From the IMG/VR virus record IMGVR_UViG_3300043427_002668: a stretch of 64,000 bases of DNA; one strand, written 5' to 3'. Under the pieces are notes generated by a model, which worked only from the letters and a program-made list of their open reading frames with translations, was not told the origin of the DNA and ran no database searches. Position 1 is the stretch's first letter. Each line of letters opens with the position of its first letter. The DNA is from a virus (lineage: Duplodnaviria; Caudoviricetes). Of the stretch, positions 3,177 to 44,152 are shown one piece after another. The position numbers were made by a program, and so were the translations under genes.

Positions 3177-4145
3177 ATGGACTTTGTTGATGTAAAGTAC
3201 ATCAATTTGATTTCTGCGCGATTTCAAAAGTTTAAGAAAGTAAAGCACAATCTCTACAACTTTCGCTGCCCTATTTGTGGAGACTCGCAGAAGAATAAGA
3301 ATAAAGCACGGGGATATTTGTATCAAGTCAAAAGTAATACAAACTTTAAGTGTCATAATTGCGGACTTAATATTTCCTTTAATAATTTTCTCAAACAATT
3401 AGATCCAGTAATTTACAAACAATATACATTCGAAAAATTTAAAGATGGAAATACTGGTAAAAACTTTATTGTAGATGAACCGAAATTTAATTTCGAAGCA
3501 CCGAAGTTTAAACCTAAGTTAGATTTACCGAAAGCATCTGAGAATTCCATAGCAAAATCTTACTTAGAAAAGAGAAAATTAAATCCGGATAAATTTTATT
3601 ATACCGACAAATTTAAGGAGTGGACTAATTCTCTCCAACAAACATTCGACAGCACAGAAAGAGATGAACCAAGGATTATTATTCCTTTGTTCTATCAAAA
3701 TACTCTAGTCGGATTTCAAGGAAGAGCACTTGGTCCAAATAAGATTAAATATATCACCGTGATGTTAAATGATGATGCCCCAAAAATCTATGGTCTCGAT
3801 GAAATACAAAAAACTGAAACTGTCTACATCACCGAAGGTCCATTTGACTCAACATTCATTCGCAACGCGATTGCTTTATGTGGAGCTGATGGTGATGTTA
3901 GTAAGTGGGGTATTGACAGGTGTGTTTGGATTTACGATAACGAACCACGTAATGCAGAAATCCATTCAAGAATCTCCCGCGTTATTGACAGAGGAGAAAG
4001 GGTCGTTGTCTGGCCTTCATCAATAAAAGAGAAAGACATTAATGAGATGGTACTATCTGGACTGGACGTTCAGTCTGTGATAGAATTAAATACTTATTCT
4101 GGATTAGAAGCAAAACTAAAATTTACTACTTGGAAGAAAATATGA
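3177..4145 (+). CDS. gp61: DNA primase (T4 gp61 family)
   Basis: Zn ribbon CPICGDS...CHNC; TOPRIM motifs ITEGPFDS and YDNEPRN. Confidence 0.95.
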   Translation: MDFVDVKYINLISARFQKFKKVKHNLYNFRCPICGDSQKNKNKARGYLYQVKSNTNFKCHNCGLNISFNNFLKQLDPVIYKQYTFEKFKDGNTGKNFIVDEPKFNFEAPKFKPKLDLPKASENSIAKSYLEKRKLNPDKFYYTDKFKEWTNSLQQTFDSTERDEPRIIIPLFYQNTLVGFQGRALGPNKIKYITVMLNDDAPKIYGLDEIQKTETVYITEGPFDSTFIRNAIALCGADGDVSKWGIDRCVWIYDNEPRNAEIHSRISRVIDRGERVVVWPSSIKEKDINEMVLSGLDVQSVIELNTYSGLEAKLKFTTWKKI

Positions 4146-6442
4146 GCAACGGAACCAAAGTTAAAAAGCGTGATGGTCGAATTGAATCTCTTGACCTAGA
4201 TAAAATGCATTTGATGGTTGAAGAGGCGTGTAAGGGTCTTGCTGGAGTCTCTGCTAGTCAAGTTGAAATGACTTCTGGTATTCAGTTTTATGATGGAATT
4301 ACAACAGCAGAAATTCAGGAAATTTTGATTCGTTCTGCTTCTGACCTTATTGATTTGGATCATCCAAATTATCAGTATGTTGCTGCTCGTCTGCTTTTAT
4401 TTGCAGTCCGAAAGCAATTGTATGGAAGAATGAAAGAAATTCCAACACTAGAGCAACACATCTATACTTGTGTAAATGCTCAAGTGTATGATGATGATAT
4501 TTTTAACAAATACTCTAGAGAAGAAATTGAACGTGCCGATTCATATATCGATCATAGTCGTGATTATCTCTTCACTTATGCAGGTCTTCGCCAAGTAGTT
4601 GATAAGTACTTGGTTCAAGATCGTAGTGGTGGTGGAGTATATGAAACTCCTCAGTTCATGTATATGATGATTGCTCTGACTATTTTTGCAGAGTATCCAA
4701 AAGAAACCCGTATGTCATATGTTAAGAGGTACTATGACGCAATCTCAAAGCACAAAATCAACATTCCCACACCTATCATGGCGGGGGTTAGAACTCCACT
4801 TCGACAGTTTGCTAGCTGTGTTCTTGTTGATGTTGATGACACCCTCGATTCTATCTTTAGCTCTGATATGGCAATTGGTAGGTATGTTGCACAGAGGGCG
4901 GGCATCGGTATCAACGCAGGCCGCATCCGTGGCATCAACAGTAAAATCAGAGGTGGAGAAGTTCAGCACACAGGTGTTGTTCCATTCCTCAAAAAGTTTG
5001 AGGCAACTGTCCGATGCTGCACTCAAAATGGCATCCGTGGTGGATCAGCAACTGTCCACTTCCCAATCTGGCACCAAGAAATCGAAGACATCCTAGTGCT
5101 GAAAAACAATAAAGGTACGGAGGATAATCGTGTTCGCAAACTTGACTACAGCATTCAAATCAGCAAACTCTTCTATGAGAGGTTCATTCAGGATGGTGAG
5201 ATCACGCTTTTCTCCCCACATGATGTACCTGGACTATATGATCGTTTCGGATTCTCTGATTTTGATGATCTCTACGTTTCGTATGAAAAAGATCCGTCCA
5301 TTAAGAAAAAGACTATTAAAGCGCAAGAACTCATTCTTAACCTCCTTAAGGAACGTGCGGAAACGGGTCGTGTCTACATTATGAATATCGATCACTGCAA
5401 TTCACACTCTTCTTTCAAGGATAAAGTAAATATGAGTAATCTCTGTCAGGAGATCACTCTTCCAACAGATCCTATTCAGCATATTGATGATAATATGGGT
5501 GAGATCGCTCTCTGTATTCTCTCCGCTATTAACGTTGGCAAAGTAAAGTCTGATGAGGAACTTGAAGAACTCTGTGATCTTTCTGTTCGTGGATTGGATG
5601 AGTTGATTGACTATCAAAAATACCCCGTAGCAGCGGCAGAAATCGCCACTAAGGCACGTCGTTCTCTTGGTGTTGGGTTTATTGGATTGGCACATTATCT
5701 TGCTAAACTTGGATTTAATTATGATTCTCAAGAAGCATGGGATGCAGTTCATGGACTTTCTGAGTCTTTCCAGTACTACCTTCTGAAAGCATCCAATCAA
5801 CTTGCTAAAGAAAAAGGTCATTGTGAATACTTTGGACGTACTAAGTATGCTGATGGTATTCTTCCAATTGATACCTATAAAAAAGATGTAGACGAAATCA
5901 CTTCCATTGATTATGAACACGATTGGAAATCTCTTAGGTCATCGATCCTGGAGCACGGTCTCAGGCACTCAACACTGTCCGCACAGATGCCATCGGAGAG
6001 CAGTTCCGTTGTGTCAAACGCAACTAATGGAATCGAACCACCTAGAGATTACCTGTCCGTTAAAAAGTCCAAAAAAGGACCTCTCAAGCAGATTGTTCCA
6101 CAGTATCAAACCCTTAAGAACAATTATACGCTTCTGTGGGATATGCCTAGCAACCGTGGGTATATTAATATTGTTGCAGTTATGCAAAAATTCTTCGATC
6201 AAGCGATTTCTGGAAACTGGTCGTATAATCCAGAAAATTATGCCAACAATGAAGTTCCTACTTCAGTAATGGCAAATGATTTTCTGACTACATACAAGTA
6301 CGGATGGAAAACTTCTTATTATCAAAATACATATGATATTAAGACTGATGAAGTGGTAGAAGAGAAGAAGTCCGAATTGGAAAGTCTTCTTAATGAGTTA
6401 AGTTCAGTAGAGGAGGGAGAGTGTGAATCCTGCGCAGTTTGA
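4142..6442 (+). CDS. nrdA: ribonucleotide reductase class Ia alpha subunit
   Basis: N-terminal ATP cone (VKKRDG), QFASCVL, SNLCQEI, ALCILSAIN, C-terminal CESC; uninterrupted ORF. Confidence 0.97.
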   Translation: MSNGTKVKKRDGRIESLDLDKMHLMVEEACKGLAGVSASQVEMTSGIQFYDGITTAEIQEILIRSASDLIDLDHPNYQYVAARLLLFAVRKQLYGRMKEIPTLEQHIYTCVNAQVYDDDIFNKYSREEIERADSYIDHSRDYLFTYAGLRQVVDKYLVQDRSGGGVYETPQFMYMMIALTIFAEYPKETRMSYVKRYYDAISKHKINIPTPIMAGVRTPLRQFASCVLVDVDDTLDSIFSSDMAIGRYVAQRAGIGINAGRIRGINSKIRGGEVQHTGVVPFLKKFEATVRCCTQNGIRGGSATVHFPIWHQEIEDILVLKNNKGTEDNRVRKLDYSIQISKLFYERFIQDGEITLFSPHDVPGLYDRFGFSDFDDLYVSYEKDPSIKKKTIKAQELILNLLKERAETGRVYIMNIDHCNSHSSFKDKVNMSNLCQEITLPTDPIQHIDDNMGEIALCILSAINVGKVKSDEELEELCDLSVRGLDELIDYQKYPVAAAEIATKARRSLGVGFIGLAHYLAKLGFNYDSQEAWDAVHGLSESFQYYLLKASNQLAKEKGHCEYFGRTKYADGILPIDTYKKDVDEITSIDYEHDWKSLRSSILEHGLRHSTLSAQMPSESSSVVSNATNGIEPPRDYLSVKKSKKGPLKQIVPQYQTLKNNYTLLWDMPSNRGYINIVAVMQKFFDQAISGNWSYNPENYANNEVPTSVMANDFLTTYKYGWKTSYYQNTYDIKTDEVVEEKKSELESLLNELSSVEEGECESCAV

Positions 6443-35575: not shown

Positions 35576-36277
35576 ATGAAAATAGATCTCCATAATTTCT
35601 TTTTACACTACGATCCTAAAAATCCAAAGCACGTTGCAGCAGTAGAGCAGTTTGAAAAGGATTTGGAATCTAAAAATCCAGACTTGCTTGATGATGAAAC
35701 GAGTTGGATAAAAATTTATAGATCAAAAGTAGAACCAGTAGTTCCAGGAGTTCTTAATGTTCCTTGGTTCCCACAAACAGATAATTACAGAGATGCACAA
35801 AGAACCTGTAATTCATCTTCTTGTGCGATGTGTCTAGAGTATTTCAAACCAGGCACACTTCAAGGAGCAACAGGCGATGATGCCTATATTCAAAAGGTAT
35901 TCGCAATTGGTGATACGACTGATCACACCGTCCAAACAAAAGTTTTGGAAGGTTATGGTATTAAGTCACGATTTGTTTACAATCTTTCTTTTGCTGATCT
36001 TGATCGTGAGCTTGCCGCTGGGAGACCTGTCGTTATCGGGATTCTTCATCGCGGTTCTTTATCTGCACCTACTGGCGGGCACTTACTTGTAGTGATCGGT
36101 AAGAAAGGTGATGATTATGTTGTAAATGATCCTTATGGTTCTCTCAACGATGGATATACGGGACCAGTTACAAATGGTAAAGGTGCTGTATATAAGAGAT
36201 CAGATCTAATGCAACGATGGTTGGATAAAGGAAAAGATAGAACTGGATGGGGTCGTATTTTTGATGCAAAAAAGTAA
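35576..36277 (+). CDS. C39-like cysteine peptidase (putative endolysin domain)
   Basis: QTDN...CNSSSCAM, GGHLLVVIG, NDPYG (Cys-His-Asp). Confidence 0.85.
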   Translation: MKIDLHNFFLHYDPKNPKHVAAVEQFEKDLESKNPDLLDDETSWIKIYRSKVEPVVPGVLNVPWFPQTDNYRDAQRTCNSSSCAMCLEYFKPGTLQGATGDDAYIQKVFAIGDTTDHTVQTKVLEGYGIKSRFVYNLSFADLDRELAAGRPVVIGILHRGSLSAPTGGHLLVVIGKKGDDYVVNDPYGSLNDGYTGPVTNGKGAVYKRSDLMQRWLDKGKDRTGWGRIFDAKK

Positions 36278-36308
36278 TTAGTTCTATTCCAGTTAAAGGG
36301 GTAGAACT
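36268..36308 (+). promoter_or_regulatory. putative programmed -1 ribosomal frameshift signal
   Basis: In-frame A-AAA-AAG heptamer, 5-nt spacer, then 11-bp hairpin AGTTCTATTCC/GGGGTAGAACT. Confidence 0.7.
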
Positions 36309-36747
36309 GATAAAAGTATTTGAAGGTTGTAAATTAAGAGCATATCCAGATCCTTTGACTGGAGGTGCTCCAATCACAATAGGTTGGGGTTCTACTAGCA
36401 GAAAAGATGGAACTGGATTTATAATGGGTAATACCATTACACAACAGGAAGCAGATGATCTGTTAATGTTTGATATTGAAACAAAATTTATTCCTGCACT
36501 ACAAAAAATCCCTTATTGGAATGAGATGAATGAAAATCAACAAGGAGCACTTCTTTCTTTTGCTTATAATCTTGGTGCTAATTTCTACGGGGGTCCCAAT
36601 TTTAATACCATAACTAGAGTATTAAAGAATAAGGAATGGGATAAAGTTCCTGATGCTTTATATCTTTACCGAAATCCTGGAAGTAATGTAGAGGCAGGAT
36701 TAGCAAGAAGAAGAAAAGCAGAGGGTGATCTTTGGAAAAGAACTTAA
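36271..36747 (+). CDS. GH24 (phage lysozyme) domain with no in-frame ATG upstream of its catalytic Glu; probably made as a fusion
   Basis: LIKVFEGCKLRAYPDPLTGGAPITIGWG (E/D/T triad; Glu at 36322), LLSFAYNLG, GLARRRKAE. The ORF-track start at 36355 omits the Glu. Confidence 0.8.
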   Translation, partial: KVISSIPVKGVELIKVFEGCKLRAYPDPLTGGAPITIGWGSTSRKDGTGFIMGNTITQQEADDLLMFDIETKFIPALQKIPYWNEMNENQQGALLSFAYNLGANFYGGPNFNTITRVLKNKEWDKVPDALYLYRNPGSNVEAGLARRRKAEGDLWKRT

Positions 36748-36784
36748 AATAAATAACAATAGACTTTATTGAGGTGTTATTATT

Positions 36785-38029
36785 ATGGATGAATTTCAAC
36801 TTGAAGAACTGCAAAAGTCAAATCAGCAAATACAGGATACTATCCCTTATGATCCTAATGCTGCATCTAGGTATCCTAATGGATATACACCTGTAGGAAT
36901 TGGTGAAGATAATACTCCAGTCGAACAGGTTGATCCTGTAAACGTTCCTGAAGTAGAAGTAACATCTCCAATATTAAACGACATTATTCCTCAGGACGTT
37001 TATGGGTCTTCTGGGGACAATATTTCCTTTGCGAATAGAAATATTCCAGAGATTGAAAATACAAGAATAGATTCAACAACTCCTATAAGAAACGCAAATG
37101 TCGTTATTAGCAGTTTACCTGGGAATAATATTGTTCCTGATAGTTCTAGCAATAGTGATGGACCACCTATCGAAGAAGATGTGGTAGATCCTCCAGTTGA
37201 TCCAGAGCCTCCTGTAGACCCCCCAGTTGATCCTGAAGATCCACCACCACCTCCACCACCTGAAGAACCTGAAGATCCAGAGGAACCTGAAGAACCTGAA
37301 GAACCTGAAGATCCAGAGGAACCTGAAGAACCTGAAGAACCTGAAGATCCAGAGGAACCAGAGGAACCAGAAGATCCTGAAGATCCTGAAGATCCAGAGG
37401 AACCTGAAGAACCTGAAGATCCAGAGGAACCTGAAGATCCAGAGGAACCTGAAGAACCTGAAGATCCAGAGGAACCTGAAGAACCTGAAGATCCAGAGGA
37501 ACCTGGTGGGGGTAATCCTGGTAATGATAAAGATGTAGGCAATTCCCCTTGGGATGGTGAGACAGGAGCATCAGACAATCCAGGCAAAGGTAATCACCAA
37601 GATGGACAAGATCCCGAACCAAACCAACCTCCAGGCGATTCAAAGAATGATGGAGGACAAAATAATGATCCAAAAGATCCTCCTGGTAATGGAGGAAATG
37701 CTGGAAATGGTGGAGGAAAACCTGATGAACAGCAAAATAATGGATGGGGGAACGGAGATGATGATGCTCCAGGTAATTCCCTCAATCACAATAACGCTGA
37801 AAATGATCAGTCTCCAAGTGAACATTATGATGATTTTGTTGGAAGATTCTTAGAAGAAAATCCAGTAGATCTAAATGTTATTAATACTCACGAAATTCCT
37901 AACGAGCATCCTCTTGATAATTTTGATACTCATATTCCTGATGTTGTATTAGATAATCTCCCAGAGGTTCACTTCGATCACTTTGATCTTCCTACAGATC
38001 ATTTCGATCACGGACCTCATAGTATGTAA
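36785..38029 (+). CDS. acidic Pro/Glu-repeat low-complexity protein
   Basis: 414 aa; (PEE/PED)n tract; Gly/Asn/Asp-rich NNGWGNGD region. Confidence 0.75.
   Translation: MDEFQLEELQKSNQQIQDTIPYDPNAASRYPNGYTPVGIGEDNTPVEQVDPVNVPEVEVTSPILNDIIPQDVYGSSGDNISFANRNIPEIENTRIDSTTPIRNANVVISSLPGNNIVPDSSSNSDGPPIEEDVVDPPVDPEPPVDPPVDPEDPPPPPPPEEPEDPEEPEEPEEPEDPEEPEEPEEPEDPEEPEEPEDPEDPEDPEEPEEPEDPEEPEDPEEPEEPEDPEEPEEPEDPEEPGGGNPGNDKDVGNSPWDGETGASDNPGKGNHQDGQDPEPNQPPGDSKNDGGQNNDPKDPPGNGGNAGNGGGKPDEQQNNGWGNGDDDAPGNSLNHNNAENDQSPSEHYDDFVGRFLEENPVDLNVINTHEIPNEHPLDNFDTHIPDVVLDNLPEVHFDHFDLPTDHFDHGPHSM
37259..37504 (+). repeat. coding tandem repeat of 9-nt units
   Basis: Mixture of CCTGAAGAA, CCTGAAGAT and CCAGAGGAA units, often as a 27-nt superunit. 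Confidence 0.95.
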
Positions 38030-38358
38030 GGATACGCAATACCTTCATTTAACATTCTTTCATTTACAGTGACTGGATCTCCAACACAATAAAGAACTCC
38101 AAGTATTCTTCCGTACTTGTCTTCTTTATGTGTTTCGATAATCCAGTCACCTTCTCTTGCAAGTTCTTTTTCTAACCAAAGTCTTGCATCAATACCTTTT
38201 TTCTTTTCTTCTAAGTCTTTAGTTCTTGTCTCTGCTGCATCAATATCTTTGAGACGAACTCTTTGTCTGAGTGTAATGCTAAATCCTAAATCAATATCAA
38301 CGTCAACAGTGTCTCCATCAATGACCCTGTGAATCTTCTTTATTTTGTACTGATACAT
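38017..38358 (-). CDS. thermonuclease (SNase-like) family nuclease
   Basis: VIDGDTV, RVRLKDIDAAE, DKYGRILG; the frame extends upstream to 38451 as a hydrophobic leader. Confidence 0.85.
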   Translation of the reverse strand: MYQYKIKKIHRVIDGDTVDVDIDLGFSITLRQRVRLKDIDAAETRTKDLEEKKKGIDARLWLEKELAREGDWIIETHKEDKYGRILGVLYCVGDPVTVNERMLNEGIAYPYIL

Positions 38359-38454
38359 TTTCCTGATTTGCGATGAGTAGGATTTTGTAGATAGCCCAAG
38401 CAACACCAACCAAACAAATACCAAGAAGAATATTAACAGACCAAACGACATCTT

Positions 38455-38646
38455 TCATTTTCCCTCTTGCTTATGAATCCAAGTTTTAAGTTCGTGTAAG
38501 TATTGTCTCAGCATATCTGCTTTATGTAGATGCCAAACATCACCACTCTTAAAGTATTCTTGAGTGTGATTATCTATTGCTTTTAGAATGTTATGTATCG
38601 GTGCGTTCCAAGGCTCACGCTTGGGAGTATTCCATTCTCGCGGCAA
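38455..38646 (-). CDS. conserved cyanophage hypothetical protein
   Basis: MPREWNTPKREPWNAPIH... Confidence 0.7.
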   Translation of the reverse strand: MPREWNTPKREPWNAPIHNILKAIDNHTQEYFKSGDVWHLHKADMLRQYLHELKTWIHKQEGK

Positions 38647-38655
38647 GGTGACACC

Positions 38656-38757
38656 TCACTTTTTCTTACCACCATTTTTTGCTTTTTTCGCAGTCGCATT
38701 ACCTTGATTTTGTTTTGAAGGTCCTTTCTTGGACTTCTTGTTAGGCGACTTAGACAT
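38656..38757 (-). CDS. 33 aa Lys-rich peptide
   Basis: MSKSPNKKSKKGPSKQNQGNATAKKAKNGGKKK read manually. Confidence 0.5.
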   Translation of the reverse strand: MSKSPNKKSKKGPSKQNQGNATAKKAKNGGKKK

Positions 38758-38792
38758 TAGTAGTCCTTATGATGCAAGAGTATTTAGGGGGG

Positions 38793-38821
38793 TTGACAGG
38801 TTCTTCACGAACTGTTATGAT
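38793..38821 (+). promoter_or_regulatory. sigma70 promoter for psbA
   Basis: TTGACA-17 nt-TATGAT. Confidence 0.75.
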
Positions 38822-38865
38822 AAATACATCAACGGGTTAAGAAATGTAACAGGTTCTTAATCTTT

Positions 38866-38980
38866 GTGCTCCCGTTAACCGAGACCTATGGGAGGGTAAA
38901 TCACGTCTCTCATACCCACACTGGAGGGTGGTGTGGGGAATATTGTAACATCCAGAACCCCCTGGACTTTTACTTACCCT
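38866..38980 (+). ncRNA. structured psbA leader, probable PhotoRC-II motif
   Basis: CTCCC/GGGAG, GAGAC/GTCTC, CCACAC/GTGTGG and TCCAG/CTGGA pairings upstream of phage psbA. Confidence 0.6.
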
Positions 38981-38990
38981 TTAACGAAAA

Positions 38991-40070
38991 ATGACTGCTA
39001 CAATTTCACAACAACGTTCTACTTCCACTTGGGATCAATTCTGCGAGTGGGTTACTTCAACGAACAACCGCCTCTATGTTGGTTGGTTCGGTACTCTGAT
39101 GATTCCAACGCTGCTTGCCGCAACGATTTGTTTCATCGTCGCCTTCATTGCTGCACCTCCTGTAGACATTGACGGCATCCGTGAACCAGTTGCTGGTTCG
39201 CTAATGTACGGAAACAACATCATTTCAGGTGCTGTTATTCCTTCAAGCAACGCCATTGGCTTGCACTTTTATCCCATCTGGGAAGCTGCCTCTCTTGATG
39301 AGTGGCTTTACAACGGTGGTCCTTACCAACTGGTAGTCTTCCACTTCCTCATCGGTATTTTCTCTTATATGGGACGTGAGTGGGAACTCTCCTATCGTCT
39401 TGGTATGCGTCCTTGGATTTGCGTAGCATATTCTGCACCTGTTGCTGCTGCTACTGCTGTTTTCCTGGTTTATCCTTTCGGTCAAGGTTCTTTCTCTGAT
39501 GGTATGCCTCTGGGTATCTCTGGTACTTTCAACTATATGCTTGTGTTCCAGGCAGAGCATAACATTCTGATGCACCCCTTCCATATGCTTGGAGTTGCTG
39601 GTGTCTTCGGTGGTTCTCTGTTCTCTGCGATGCACGGTTCACTGGTGACTTCCTCGCTGGTTCGTGAAACCACTGAGAATGAGTCGCAGAACTATGGTTA
39701 CAAGTTCGGTCAAGAAGAAGAGACTTATAACATCGTTGCCGCACACGGTTACTTTGGTCGTCTGATCTTCCAATATGCTTCGTTCAACAACTCTCGTTCG
39801 CTGCACTTCTTCCTCGCTGCCTGGCCCGTTGTAGGCATCTGGTTCACTGCTCTTGGTGTTTCTACGATGGCTTTCAATTTGAATGGTTTCAACTTTAATC
39901 AAAGTATTGTTGATAGTCAGGGTAAGGTAATCAATACCTGGGCTGATGTACTCAACCGTGCCAATCTCGGGATGGAGGTGTCCCATGAGAGAAACGCACA
40001 TAACTTTCCATTGGATCTTGCAAGCGTAGAAGCAACTCCTGTTGCTCTTACCGCTCCTACAATCGGTTGA
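38991..40070 (+). CDS. psbA: photosystem II D1 protein
   Basis: Full-length D1 ([25 protein letters not shown]); intronless; Ser replaces the usual Met331. Confidence 0.99.
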
Positions 40071-40091
40071 TAAAAACTTCATAAGTTTTTT

Positions 40092-40124
40092 AGAGACCCG
40101 AAAGGGTCTCTTTTTTTATAAATA
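40092..40124 (+). terminator. psbA terminator followed by late promoter TATAAATA (40117-40124)
   Basis: AGAGACCC-GAAA-GGGTCTCT plus T7. Confidence 0.8.
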
Positions 40125-40150
40125 AGTATAGAAAATAAGCATTACAAAAA

Positions 40151-40522
40151 ATGAAAGTTTGTTCTAAGTGTAATCAATCTCTACCAGAAAGTTCTTTTCA
40201 TAAACGAACTTATTCTTCTGGTAGTGTTGGGTTGCAACCAAAATGTAAAAAGTGTTCTACTGAAAATCGTAGGCAATACTATAAACCTCACGAATTTATG
40301 CGTAGGAAGTTCAAACTTACCGAACAGCAATACGCAGAACTTATGAAAAATGAGAACTGTCAGATATGTAATGTGGAACTAACAAAGAAATGTATAGACC
40401 ACTGCCACTCTACAAATAAGGTTCGCGGTGTCCTCTGCAATAACTGCAATACTGCACTGGGTCTTGTTGGAGATAATATTCAAACACTTCAAAAAATGAT
40501 TGAATATCTAAATGCTTATTGA
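40151..40522 (+). CDS. endonuclease VII-like (F-CphI/DHHRN-type) free-standing homing endonuclease
   Basis: CQICN...IDHCHSTNKVRGVLCNNCNTALG; N-terminal CSKC...CKKC; directly downstream of psbA. Confidence 0.85.
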   Translation: MKVCSKCNQSLPESSFHKRTYSSGSVGLQPKCKKCSTENRRQYYKPHEFMRRKFKLTEQQYAELMKNENCQICNVELTKKCIDHCHSTNKVRGVLCNNCNTALGLVGDNIQTLQKMIEYLNAY

Positions 40523-40548
40523 TATAAAACTTAATAACTGATATAATT

Positions 40549-40575
40549 AAGAGGGTATAACAACCCTCTTTTTTT
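40549..40575 (+). terminator. intrinsic terminator
   Basis: AAGAGGGT/ACCCTCTT plus T-run. Confidence 0.7.
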
Positions 40576-40848
40576 ATGCTTTATCTTTTCTCAAAAACGG
40601 AATGCGGTCCTTGTATTCTAGTCAAAAAGTATTTCAAAACGATGAATGACCCAAGGACAGAACAAATTAAAGAAATTCTTCTTGATGATGGATGTGCCGA
40701 AGAAGATCTTCAATTTGCTAAAAAATATGGAGTTACCGCAACTCCTACTCTTCTAGTCATTAAAGATGATGAAGTAATCGAAGAGTATATTGGTGGAGTT
40801 CCTATTACACAGAACATTACCAAGATTTTAGGTAACTATACTGATTGA
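40576..40848 (+). CDS. thioredoxin/glutaredoxin-like protein
   Basis: CGPC active site; YGVTATPTL. Confidence 0.85.
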   Translation: MLYLFSKTECGPCILVKKYFKTMNDPRTEQIKEILLDDGCAEEDLQFAKKYGVTATPTLLVIKDDEVIEEYIGGVPITQNITKILGNYTD

Positions 40849-40873
40849 CTTCCTGATTAAGAAACATTACAAT
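40845..40873 (+). promoter_or_regulatory. sigma70 promoter for psbD
   Basis: TTGACT-17 nt-TACAAT. Confidence 0.7.
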
Positions 40874-40901
40874 AAATATTACAAATCATTACGGAGGATT
40901 G

Positions 40902-41963
40902 ATGGTTTCGTCAACACTTTCACAACCAATTTCACAAAGGGGGTGGTTCGATGTCTTGGATGACTGGCTTAAACGAGATCGCTTTGTATTTGTGGGCTGG
41001 TCTGGACTACTTCTTTTTCCCACTGCTTATTTGGCCCTTGGTGGCTGGCTTACTGGCACAACGTTTGTTACAAGCTGGTACACCCACGGGTTGGCGTCTA
41101 GTTACCTTGAGGGTGCTAATTTCCTCACAGCAGCTGTTTCGACGCCTGCAGATGCTATGGGTCATTCTCTTCTTCTACTTTGGGGTCCTGAGTCTCAAGG
41201 GGATTTCGTCAGGTGGTGCCAACTTGGGGGACTCTGGACTTTTGTGGCGCTCCACGGAGCCTTCGCTCTTATAGGTTTTATGCTTCGACAGTTTGAGATT
41301 GCTCGTCTTGTAGGCATCCGTCCTTACAATGCAATCGCATTCTCTGGTCCTATCGCTGTATTTGTTTCTGTATTCCTGATGTATCCACTGGGTCAATCCA
41401 GTTGGTTCTTTGCTCCATCCTTTGGTGTTGCTGCTATCTTTAGGTTCCTTCTGTTTCTTCAGGGTTTCCACAACTGGACCCTCAACCCCTTCCATATGAT
41501 GGGAGTTGCTGGTATACTGGGTGGAGCACTGCTCTGTGCGATTCATGGAGCAACTGTAGAAAATACATTATTTGAAGATGGCGAACAAGCAAACACTTTC
41601 AAGGCATTTGAACCGACTCAAGAGGAAGAGACTTATTCGATGGTTACTGCAAACCGATTCTGGTCGCAGATTTTTGGAATTGCTTTTTCCAATAAGCGTT
41701 GGTTACATTTTTTCATGCTTTTTGTTCCCGTTATGGGTCTCTGGACTAGTTCTATTGGCATTATTGGTTTGGCTCTCAATCTTAGGGCCTATGATTTTGT
41801 AAGTCAGGAAATTCGTGCTGCGGAAGACCCGGAATTTGAGACATTTTACACAAAAAATATATTATTAAACGAAGGCCTCCGTGCTTGGATGGCTCCTACA
41901 GATCAACCTCACGAAAACTTCCAGTTTCCTGATGAAATATTGCCGCGAGGAAATGCTTTATGA
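40902..41963 (+). CDS. psbD: photosystem II D2 protein
   Basis: [45 protein letters not shown]. Confidence 0.99.
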
Positions 41964-41969
41964 TATAAT
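41940..41969 (+). promoter_or_regulatory. promoter built into the last psbD codons
   Basis: TTGCCG-18 nt-TATAAT; the psbD TGA stop supplies the TG of an extended -10. Confidence 0.55.
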
Positions 41970-41986
41970 TAGTATTACTTGCGGTA

Positions 41987-42571
41987 ATGCTAATGGTTTG
42001 GAATAAAGGATTAAAAAATGACCCCCGATTAAAAGGGGGTCGCCCTAAATCAAGTCTCTCATATGTCGGTCAGACTTGTGGGAGACTTACTATTTTAGAA
42101 CAGTATAGTGATAAGAAAAGCATTTATTTTAAATGTGAGTGTGAATGTGGTAATATAAAGGACAAAATTCGTAAGGATTATATAATAGGATCTAAAGCAG
42201 AAATAAAATCTTGTGGATGTAGATTAAAAGAACTTCATCAAGAAAGGAGGGAGAAAGGTATTGATGAAGTATCTGCCATGTGGTCTAGAGCAAAATATAG
42301 AGCAAAGCAGAAAGGATTAGACTTCGCAATAGAACAAAAAGATATTATTATTCCAGATAAGTGTCCTCTTCTTGGAATACCATTAGAATGTCATCGTGGT
42401 AAGGGAAGTCAGCAAGGAAATTCTCCATCTTTAGATCGTATTGACCCCTCAAAGGGATACATAAAAGGTAATGTGTGGGTCATAAGTAATAGAGCAAACA
42501 CTCTCAAAAATGACGCCACCCTACAAGAACTTCAAACACTTTTAGAAAACCTCAAATTTTATGTCTCATAA
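41987..42571 (+). CDS. His-Me/HNH-like free-standing endonuclease
   Basis: GRLTI...CECECG...SCGC N-terminus; CPLLG...SLDRIDPSKGYIKGNVWVISNRAN. Confidence 0.78.
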   Translation: MLMVWNKGLKNDPRLKGGRPKSSLSYVGQTCGRLTILEQYSDKKSIYFKCECECGNIKDKIRKDYIIGSKAEIKSCGCRLKELHQERREKGIDEVSAMWSRAKYRAKQKGLDFAIEQKDIIIPDKCPLLGIPLECHRGKGSQQGNSPSLDRIDPSKGYIKGNVWVISNRANTLKNDATLQELQTLLENLKFYVS

Positions 42572-42680
42572 CCGCGATTACGAACCTATGGAGCCCTGGG
42601 TGGTTTGGGCTGGTGTAGGAATTATGATATTTACAGTTATTGTGTTTGTTGTATTCACTCTTTCGATGATGTACTTTTAA
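42561..42680 (+). CDS. 39 aa single-TM peptide
   Basis: MSHNRDYEPMEPWVVWAGVGIMIFTVIVFVVFTLSMMYF. Confidence 0.5.
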   Translation: MSHNRDYEPMEPWVVWAGVGIMIFTVIVFVVFTLSMMYF

Positions 42681-42891
42681 GCATATGTTCTTCATCCTTA
42701 CAGTCTTCATACTCTTTGGTATCTTTATGTTTGTAATTTCATTCATATGATATTGACAACTATGCAAAAATCGCATAGAATATCAACACTTCCCACAAAT
42801 GGGACTTGCGCTATATCTAAAGGTTTGTTATACTATGGTCAAGAAAGGGCACCAAGTGTAGTGTCTTTTTTATGTCCTTTACGATAAAAAA

Positions 42892-43317
42892 ATGAAACCT
42901 TTTTCATATTATCAAGAGACTTCGGTATCAATACCAAAGAAAGACGATTATATGACCATCTATTATTACCGAAAGGGAGTAATGGTAGGAATGAAAAGAC
43001 AGTTTGAAGATGATTTTGAACCTCCAAAGGGATGTGTAGAAGAGAAGGTTCTTGATGAGGTTTCATTTAATGCTCATATGAAACATTATCATGAAGAAAA
43101 CAAAAGATTGCAGGATGAGTTTCGTAGAGATCTCATTGAAGAATATGGAATGACAGGGCATCCAAAAGCAGATAAGATTTTTAATAAGGCTTGGGATATG
43201 GGATGCTCTTTGGGTTATCAAGCAATTCAAGATTACTTTGAAGATCTTGTAGAACTATTTGATAAAGAACTGGTGATTGACGAAAGCACAAATCTTTTTG
43301 AAGTAATGGTCAATTGA
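42892..43317 (+). CDS. hypothetical protein
   Basis: 141 aa; HPKADKIFNKAWDMG motif. Confidence 0.7.
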   Translation: MKPFSYYQETSVSIPKKDDYMTIYYYRKGVMVGMKRQFEDDFEPPKGCVEEKVLDEVSFNAHMKHYHEENKRLQDEFRRDLIEEYGMTGHPKADKIFNKAWDMGCSLGYQAIQDYFEDLVELFDKELVIDESTNLFEVMVN

Positions 43318-43517
43318 TATGGAAAAAAAAACAAAAAGAAATTGTTAGAACCCTTCAAGTTCTATTATGGTTATGGTTTGGTGTTATGACTTCATTTGTT
43401 TCAACTAATGTTGTAAATATTGCAAGACTTGAAACTGAAGTAAAAGTCCTTCACAAGGACATAGAAGATTTACAAAATCGCATTATATCCTTAAAGCAAC
43501 ATACTACATCAAAATAA
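43314..43517 (+). CDS. small TM plus coiled-coil protein
   Basis: 67 aa ORF. Confidence 0.5.
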   Translation: MIWKKKQKEIVRTLQVLLWLWFGVMTSFVSTNVVNIARLETEVKVLHKDIEDLQNRIISLKQHTTSK

Positions 43518-43521
43518 AATT

Positions 43522-43833
43522 ATGTCTCTTACTATTGAACAAATCGAACAACAGATTTCGGATCTCCAAAAAACTTTGGATGAACTGAAAAACCAAAAAC
43601 TCAAAGTATCCCGACACTTCTCTGGGCAATACTTTGAACCTTATCAAGGTAGACTGTATAGGCGAATGGAATCTGACGGAGTACCTCTTTGGGAAACCTA
43701 TCTTGATATTAAAAAAGAATGGGTTATTCTTGATGCAAAAGAAATGATGGAACTTGAAAAGACTTATTTAAATGATTGTGTTTCCTTGAATAAGGAACCT
43801 TCTTCAGAAAGTCTTGAAGAATTTATGAAATAA
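43522..43833 (+). CDS. hypothetical protein
   Basis: 103 aa ORF with N-terminal coiled coil. Confidence 0.7.
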   Translation: MSLTIEQIEQQISDLQKTLDELKNQKLKVSRHFSGQYFEPYQGRLYRRMESDGVPLWETYLDIKKEWVILDAKEMMELEKTYLNDCVSLNKEPSSESLEEFMK

Positions 43834-43873
43834 AAAATAAAGAGTGGTGCTGTAGCATCACTCTTTTAAAGTA

Positions 43874-44152
43874 TTAAGATACTGGAGGAATTGGTTCTAT
43901 TATCGGAACAACATCTGGTGGATTCTTAGAAGATTCTGGAGCAGGATGCATTGATTGATTAATCACAGAATCCTGAATTACATCAGTCATATCTCCAAAG
44001 TTATTAATACTTTGATCTACATCTGCAATCTGACTATCAATTATATTTTTTTGATAGTTGTAGTATGGATTGTAATAATATCTTCTATAATAATAAGGAT
44101 CAATATTATAATATCTCATATAATAAGGATATGGTTGATAGTGGTATTGCAT
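43874..44152 (-). CDS. Tyr-rich protein (92 aa)
   Basis: MQYHYQPYPYYMRYYNIDPYYYRRYYYNPYY...; AGGAG SD before ATG 44152. Confidence 0.7.
   Translation of the reverse strand: MQYHYQPYPYYMRYYNIDPYYYRRYYYNPYYNYQKNIIDSQIADVDQSINNFGDMTDVIQDSVINQSMHPAPESSKNPPDVVPIIEPIPPVS

Follow-up and report, generated by a model that had tools for sequence, protein, structure and literature searches.

A short nuclease-linked footprint in an intronless phage psbA gene beside an optional Endo VII-type endonuclease gene

Introduction

How may a phage spare its own psbA gene if the gene lacks an intron and is directly followed by a gene for a putative homing endonuclease? The question is raised by the IMG/VR virus record IMGVR_UViG_3300043427_002668 (Duplodnaviria; Caudoviricetes), a 115-kb contig judged 58% complete. 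A stretch of 64,000 nucleotides of this record, hereafter called the window, was analyzed, and all positions given below are those of the window. The public sequencing runs that match it best carry a freshwater metagenome label, and RNA runs share less than 10% of its sampled sequence words. Among the auxiliary metabolic genes of marine and freshwater cyanophages, psbA, which encodes the D1 protein of photosystem II (PSII), is the best known, and its mosaic 3′ end has previously been ascribed to host-phage recombination. A sequence-only reading of the window had proposed that self-immunity comes here from recoding of the psbA 3′ end, including the replacement of Met331 by Ser, in a case of intronless homing. 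I compared the locus with about 170 related loci (designated by L numbers). The proposal was supported by this comparison, in that every comparative prediction that was testable here came out as predicted. The nuclease gene lies in an optional cassette next to a divergent psbA 3′ end, and the part of psbA that seems to be linked to the nuclease is a short footprint that includes a near-invariant residue next to ligands of the Mn cluster.

Results

An optional cassette and a divergent psbA 3′ end

The psbA gene of the window (38991..40070, plus strand; 359 amino acids; Pfam Photo_RC, E 2.3e-91) is an intact ORF, and no Rfam match to a group I intron (RF00028) was found in positions 36000-44000 or across the 115-kb record. 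Thus, the gene is intronless, as had been read from the sequence. Its product shares 96% amino-acid identity with the nearest IMG/VR alleles. The D1 sequence reads EVSHERN, in which Ser331 is encoded by TCC (39981-39983), and the AGA codon of R334 (39990-39992) is the only AGA among 11 Arg codons, the other ten being CGT or CGC. Both observations of the sequence-only reading were confirmed.

As revealed by blastn, positions 4077-5064 of a related IMG/VR contig, L001, align to window positions 40519-41506 at 96%, directly past the L001 psbA stop codon. L001 is an exact empty site, in which the psbA stop runs directly into what lies past the nuclease stop in the window. The cassette missing from L001 is ~435 bp in length (40085..40518, plus strand) and contains a hairpin, the octamer TATAAATA, and the nuclease ORF. 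The insertion is bracketed by the copies of an ~18-nt imperfect direct repeat (TTGATA..AAACTT.ATAA). The left copy (40067..40084, plus strand) spans the psbA stop, while the right copy (40519..40537, plus strand), identified by comparison with the left copy and the psbA end of L001, spans the nuclease stop. Both forms of the locus were also found in contigs of public runs. In X1 and X2, which belong to two freshwater studies, the TCC/AGA site of the window is continuous into the cassette with zero differences. The empty-site joint, from ~40066/40072 to ~40519/40526, is present in one contig each of X1 and X5. Since the X1 contigs include filled and empty joints, the two forms co-occur in X1. 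One of these runs may be the window's own source. Another joint in the public-run contigs (39859>39984) has a low depth and is not interpretable.

The sequence-only reading had also noted an abrupt change of codon choice near the psbA 3′ end. Against L001, an abrupt change is evident. The identity is 94.8% before alignment column 891 and 74.4% after it; the divergence is 5.2% in the first 870 aligned nucleotides, as compared with 25.6% in the final 207 (Fisher p 3e-16). This break is at ~39861, about 20 nt upstream of the start that had been given for the change. The codon shift itself is real but modest. The two-fold NNY codons number 47 C to 19 T before codon 297 and 5 C to 11 T after it (Fisher p 0.0075), and the GC content of third codon positions (GC3) goes from 0.46 to 0.39 past codon 297. 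Across 1485 pairs of nuclease-free alleles, the ratio of 3′ to 5′ psbA divergence is 1.1. Over ~57 nt across the site, L108 matches the window at 100%, as compared with 75-85% in the flanks. The divergent psbA 3′ end together with the stop region (39861..40084, plus strand) is likely to be a tract acquired with the cassette, and most of the ~210-nt recoded segment seems to be a product of such recombination or co-conversion. A general AT-rich recoding was tried as a class feature and dropped, because nuclease-adjacent and nuclease-free alleles do not differ in 3′ versus 5′ GC3 (p 0.23). A free-standing optional nuclease gene that lies between conserved genes and is present or absent among close relatives, and a divergent tract of the co-conversion type adjoining it, are both expected for intronless homing. 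Both were found at this locus.

The nuclease-linked footprint in codons 328-341

Which part of the psbA 3′ end is linked to the nuclease gene? Of more than 597 psbA relatives, the best 80 were taken. Association was assessed with Fisher tests on dereplicated alleles, and the nuclease-free class consists of 57 alleles having at least 700 nt of downstream sequence without a nuclease. The R334 codon is AGR in 21 of the 23 alleles that lie beside a nuclease of the window's clade, as compared with 10 of the 57 nuclease-free alleles (p 8e-10). For Leu328, the counts are 15/23 versus 3/57 (p 4e-8), and for residues other than Met at position 331, 6/23 versus 1/57 (p 0.002). The strongest single marker is the synonymous change of R334 from CGY to AGR, not M331S. 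In a scan of 1098 columns, the top five were position 1 of R334, position 3 of A336, position 3 of F339, position 1 of M328, and position 1 of L341. The signal is at background in codons 342-352, though these codons are closer to the nuclease gene. A peak at codons 328-341 with background nearer the nuclease favors selection at the site over a decay of linkage. In these alignments, the nuclease-linked footprint appears to be only ~42 nt in length.

The putative nuclease target and immunity footprint of the window, delimited by comparison only, covers codons 327-341 (39969..40013, plus strand), and the equivalent of the intron insertion site of phage S-PM2 lies at 39992|39993. The changes in the window are M331S (TCC), R334 AGA, A336 GCA, H337 CAT, F339 TTT, and L341 TTG. 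At the other ten Arg positions, AGR was found in 0/159 codons of 17 full-length nuclease-adjacent alleles, while R334 is AGR in 15 of the 17. Thus, the association is not a matter of codon usage. Alternative mutations were found at the same codons: residue 331 is S, V, I, or Q; codon 328 is CTC, TTA, or CTA; and codon 334 is AGA or AGG. The nuclease of the window belongs to subclade A, which pairs mostly with M331X plus AGR, while subclade B pairs mostly with L328 plus AGR. This pairing suggests, without proof, slightly different specificities. On a tree of 5′ psbA sequences, the presence of the nuclease changes 13 times; of ~10 independent contrasts, 6.4 link AGR to the nuclease and 0.3 have the opposite sign (sign test, median p 0.03).

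Rarity and company of M331S

Met331 is near-invariant. Among the 80 IMG/VR psbA relatives, residue 331 is M in 77, V in one, I in one, and S in none, and one locus is off the scan motif. A pattern scan of 2.9 million IMG/VR contigs yielded nine EVSHERN alleles, all of which have TCC and an AGR codon at R334. One of them neighbors a nuclease of the window's clade, four neighbor F-CphI-clade nucleases that are 42-59% identical to F-CphI, and four have none. M331S is rare, and most lineages carrying it have a neighboring nuclease. It was thus not found to be common in psbA alleles that lack one.

Among 185,579 prokaryote species (one genome each), a single match with S, T, C, R, or W at position 331 was found. 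It is L173 (CAZRFN010000190.1, 1430 bp), placed in a metagenome-assembled genome of 'Acidibacter', a non-cyanobacterium, and is a cyanophage fragment, likely included there by a binning error. L173 has an intronless EVSHERN psbA with TCC and AGA, followed by a nuclease 89% identical to F-CphI. Thus, the TCC plus AGR patch is also found beside an orthologue of F-CphI, an enzyme with an experimentally known target.

Group I introns at the same site

The psbA partners of window-clade nucleases are of two kinds. One kind is intronless and has the changes described above, and the other is interrupted by group I introns (Rfam RF00028), whose four insertion positions lie within 20 nt. An intron lies inside codon 331 (AT|G) in L096, L106, L084, and L090; at R334|N335 in L083, L085, L087, L089, and L122, likewise in S-PM2 and S-SRM01; at A336|H337 in L103 and L105; and at H337|N338 in L084 and L090, where a 19-nt micro-exon remains. 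The layout of collaborative homing, in which a group I intron interrupts the target in the carrier, is found in the relatives L083, L085, L087, L089, L122, L103, L084, L090, and L106, and not in psbA of the window. It is likely from this distribution that the intron and the recoding are alternative shields of one contested site.

The 5′ splice site of a group I intron needs U at position -1, and the 5′ exons at these introns all end in T. Alleles with an intron keep CGT. This was considered as a clean control and downgraded, because the splice-site U forces CGT at R334|N335.

Two further observations were made on these introns. The psbA genes of L084 (2040-2360) and L090 (2060-2400) have three or four group I introns, and their micro-exon (G CAT GAA CGY AAC GCC CAT) encodes H332-H337, Mn ligands included. 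The R334|N335 intron of S-SRM01 (L163) is 94% identical to that of L087, while the nuclease 3′ of psbA belongs to the F-CphI clade in the former and to the window's clade in the latter. This indicates that intron and nuclease are exchanged independently.

The nuclease encoded at 40151-40522

The ORF at 40151..40522 (plus strand) encodes a putative free-standing homing endonuclease of 123 amino acids with an Endo VII motif of the DHHRN type (Pfam PF02945, E 2.8e-18, residues 50-121). The protein has an N-terminal zinc-ribbon-like module (CxxC...CxxC) and a C-terminal catalytic domain. In an alignment with F-CphI, the psbA-linked endonuclease of S-PM2, D83, H84, H86, R92, N100, and eight Cys residues are invariant; C70, C73, C96, and C99 are among the latter, and C70 is the equivalent of F-CphI C84. 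Mutagenesis has identified C84, D101, H102, R110, and N118 as essential in F-CphI (PMC6083498). Every one of these is kept in the 40151 protein, and its C-terminal motif fits the layout of the 'endonuclease clade' (PMC6083498). The gene is under purifying selection, with a dN/dS of 0.07-0.26 against seven relatives.

The sequence-only reading had called the nuclease F-CphI-like. The family assignment and the conserved D, H, H, R, N, and Cys residues bear this out, while the overall identity to F-CphI is only 31%. A tree of 45 psbA-linked nucleases has two deep clades, F-CphI's and the window's, each with 100% SH-aLRT support. By its sequence, the 40151 protein is a DHHRN family member of a sister clade of F-CphI, not an orthologue. 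The window nuclease has 41 close homologues (L082-L122; 63-91% identity), and all of those with flank available adjoin psbA. The nearest homologue in a cultured phage is YP_007674393 of S-SKS1 (70% identity), whose gene lies directly 3′ of psbA.

In L004, L017, L091, and L093, the window-clade nuclease gene is in reverse orientation to psbA. Its 3′ end overlaps that of psbA, starting ~65-74 nt past the intron-site position. Thus, the cassette exists in both orientations.

Neighboring genes and signals

The psbA leader has a PhotoRC-II RNA motif (38857..38951, plus strand; Rfam RF01717, 80.1 bits, E 3.5e-13), and this motif is also found upstream of psbA in L087, L103, and L106. A terminator-like hairpin followed by a T run lies 3′ of psbA (40092..40111, plus strand; consensus scan, 8-bp stem with 5 GC pairs). 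Just past the hairpin and 26 nt before the ATG of the nuclease gene lies TATAAATA (40117..40124, plus strand), which matches the consensus of a T4-type late promoter, as had been noted in the sequence-only reading. The octamer is not enriched in the window, with 4 copies against 5.4 expected by chance. Hence, the late promoter is to be taken as a consensus match only.

Beyond the nuclease gene follow a thioredoxin-like gene, psbD (40899-41963), and an HNH-like ORF (41987-42571), all on the plus strand. Positions 40519-40570 contain a near-consensus sigma-70-type promoter (TTGATA-17-TATAAT, 11/12 matches, with TG) that directly precedes a terminator-like hairpin, both ahead of the thioredoxin-like gene. 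This element of promoter and hairpin is kept in L001, where it lies directly 3′ of psbA. The HNH-like ORF directly 3′ of psbD encodes an endonuclease-like protein of 194 amino acids without a Pfam match. The distance from the psbD end to the downstream sequence is ~44 nt in L005 as compared with ~728 nt in the window, and homologues of the ORF are found 3′ of psbD in S-SKS1 (51%) and in L093 and L116 (42%). With a second optional endonuclease-like ORF at psbD, both PSII core genes carry their own nuclease cassette.

Upstream of psbA, an SNase-like gene (38017-38451, minus strand; Pfam E 2.8e-10) encodes a protein with an N-terminal hydrophobic segment. The ORF at 36785-38029 (plus strand; 414 amino acids) has a long regular acidic Pro/Glu repeat (PEEPEDPEE...) at its center, which yields long spurious ORFs in other frames and on the opposite strand.

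Discussion

A possible mechanism and its alternatives

The best reading of the locus is probably intronless homing with target-site immunity. In a mixed infection, psbA alleles with the usual sequence around codons 328-341 would be cut by the 40151 enzyme. This region is a contested hot spot, in that it contains the F-CphI target as well as the insertion points of four different group I introns. With a nuclease-bearing genome as the repair template, the cassette (40085-40518) would then be copied together with the psbA 3′ end (39861-40084). The carrier's own psbA may be spared because its site is rewritten; R334 CGY>AGA, A336 GCT>GCA, H337 CAC>CAT, F339 TTC>TTT, L341 CTN>TTG, and M331 ATG>TCC would constitute the shield. 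The comparisons show the cassette, its empty site, the mosaic tract, and a footprint linked to the nuclease, and they show that the patch recurs next to nucleases of two deep clades. Cutting at the site is presumed on this basis, the changes would block it, and M331S may contribute to the protection.

Several observations weigh against this reading. The window enzyme is only 31% identical to F-CphI, so that its target had to be inferred. AGR occurs in 10 of the 57 nuclease-free alleles, which fits nuclease loss or resistance selected in trans and also fits the alternatives below. Beside nucleases of the window's clade, L004 and L117 keep CGN, and L003, L005, L023, and L061 have the ordinary M328/M331/CGN site without an intron beside nucleases of the F-CphI clade. 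The intron alleles free of the splice constraint comprise three with CGY and two with AGR (L096 and L106). The four EVSHERN contigs without a nuclease (L165, L166, L168, and L171) are one lineage, whose sites are nearly identical (three identical, L166 one base off) and whose psbA leads straight into psbD. After tree correction, the association is modestly significant only. Apart from S-SKS1 and S-PM2, the data come from metagenome contigs throughout, and in such contigs chimeras can arise within a conserved gene.

Could the variants be passengers? AGR, TCC, and L328 may be neutral variants that mark the lineage where the cassette first landed, dragged along by co-conversion, in which case self-protection, if needed, would come from something else, or psbA would not be the target of the enzyme. 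The variants do lie inside the tract that moves with the nuclease, the nine EVSHERN contigs share TCC plus AGR as if the patch had one origin, and the tree-corrected p is only ~0.03. Such hitch-hiking is unlikely, however, since the association peaks at codons 328-341 and falls to background toward the nuclease gene, the same three codons have been changed in several different ways, the patch is common to divergent flanks and to two deep nuclease clades, and AGR is confined to R334 among the Arg positions (0/159 codons at the other ten). A different explanation is that the changes protect against the introns and nucleases of co-infecting phages, while the resident enzyme may cut elsewhere. TCC would destroy the AT|G insertion site in codon 331, AGA would deprive the R334|N335 site of its required U at -1, and four intron sites lie within 20 nt with every 5′ exon ending in T. 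The ten nuclease-free AGR alleles and the EVSHERN lineage without a nuclease also fit this explanation. It overlaps with target-site immunity to the resident enzyme, and taken alone it is quite unlikely, because it accounts neither for the ~50-fold enrichment of the variants (odds ratio) beside nuclease genes nor for introns at exactly this site in the other partners of the clade.

Two other explanations concern the proteins. The replacement of Met328 and Met331 may have been selected for the performance of the photosystem during infection, with the link to the nuclease being incidental. Indeed, M328 and M331 of D1 are reported sites of photodamage or oxidation next to H332 (PMC13478394). Such an adaptation leaves the strongest signal, that of the synonymous changes (R334 AGR, A336, H337, F339, and L341), and the enrichment beside nucleases unexplained, and no cellular genome among the 185,579 species has S, T, C, R, or W at position 331; it is very improbable. 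That ORF 40151 encodes the Holliday-junction resolvase of the phage, an analogue of T4 gp49, is scarcely credible. In its favor are the match to Pfam Endonuclease_7 and the fact that no other Endo VII domain was found in the 58%-complete record. However, its catalytic motif is C-terminal behind the zinc-ribbon-like module, an arrangement shared with the 'endonuclease clade' and not with T4 Endo VII, its gene is precisely missing from a 95%-identical relative and from co-occurring variants, and its position beside psbA is fixed across the clade. T4 Endo VII (gp49) has an N-terminal catalytic domain and a C-terminal dimerization domain, and it is encoded by a core, non-optional gene.

Novelty and implications

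Free-standing homing nucleases, co-conversion, the resistance of T4 Seg/Mob donors by polymorphism, the F-CphI family, and psbA as a homing target are already known. In the literature searched, no description was found of intronless psbA alleles recoded beside such nucleases or of M331 variants, and for D1-M331 only the oxidation report was found. As far as that literature goes, the following are apparently undescribed: a sister clade of F-CphI fixed at psbA, four intron sites within 20 nt, an intron-free shield with a mapped footprint of ~42 nt, and the recurrent replacement of Met331 or Met328.

The data point to free-standing Endo VII-type homing nucleases as the driver of a recombination hot spot in the last ~200 nt of psbA. 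Selection by these nucleases seems also to favor rewritten sites, and to do so even where the residue is otherwise invariant in cyanobacteria and phages alike. It is conceivable, though somewhat doubtful, that in many cyanophages the amino-acid sequence of the D1 C-terminal tail is set by an arms race of selfish nucleases and introns and not by photosynthetic function. If so, a ~42-nt site would be fought over by four group I introns and the nucleases of at least two deep clades, and the replacements next to the Mn ligands H332 and E333 (M331S/V/I/Q and M328L) would represent escape mutations at this site. As M328 and M331 are prone to oxidation, the escape alleles might also change the photodamage of phage-made PSII. 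For the uncharacterised sister clade of F-CphI, codons 328-341 provide a testable recognition footprint.

Comparison with known systems

Zeng, Bonocora, and Shub reportedly described in 2009 the 'collaborative homing' of F-CphI of S-PM2 with a psbA group I intron that lacks an ORF. In S-PM2, psbA exon 1 ends with R334 (CGT), and exon 2 begins with N335. F-CphI cuts where the intron is inserted (PMC2790892), and its 60-mer substrate (Fang et al. 2018 supplement, PMC6083498) encodes the same psbA peptide as the footprint of the window. As in S-PM2, a free-standing nuclease with an Endo VII motif lies directly 3′ of psbA in the window, the catalytic and Zn-binding residues are the same, and the same psbA stretch is involved. 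The closest relatives of the window enzyme are also found beside introns at R334|N335. Unlike F-CphI, which has 142 amino acids, the window enzyme is a shorter protein (123 amino acids; 31% identity) of a separate deep clade. Unlike S-PM2, the window psbA has no intron, and protection would come from exon changes, one of which is non-synonymous.

S-SKS1 (NC_020851) has the same order of psbA, Endo VII, psbD, and second endonuclease as the window. Its psbA is likewise intronless and reads L328, I331, and R334 AGG. In contrast to the window, S-SKS1 has Ile and not Ser at position 331, its nuclease belongs to subclade B, and an extra HNH gene and talC lie between psbA and psbD. The psbA-endonuclease VII locus of S-SKS1 has been annotated, and I know of no study of it. 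S-SKS1 is a cultured phage suited to testing homing and shielding by a psbA nuclease.

Intronless homing by free-standing T4 endonucleases is said to have been described by Belle et al. in 2002 and Liu et al. in 2003. In the T4 Seg/Mob systems, the donor is resistant through sequence polymorphism. The pairs concerned are SegF and gene 56, SegG and gene 32, and MobE and nrdB (PMC2790892). The window resembles them in having an optional nuclease gene between conserved genes and probably co-converted flanking markers, and the target presumably lies, as in T4, in the neighboring gene of genomes without the nuclease. It differs from them in that the nuclease has an Endo VII motif, not GIY-YIG or HNH, and in that the target would be a photosynthesis gene. 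The changes linked to immunity in the window also differ from those of the T4 systems, since they replace a near-invariant residue beside metal ligands.

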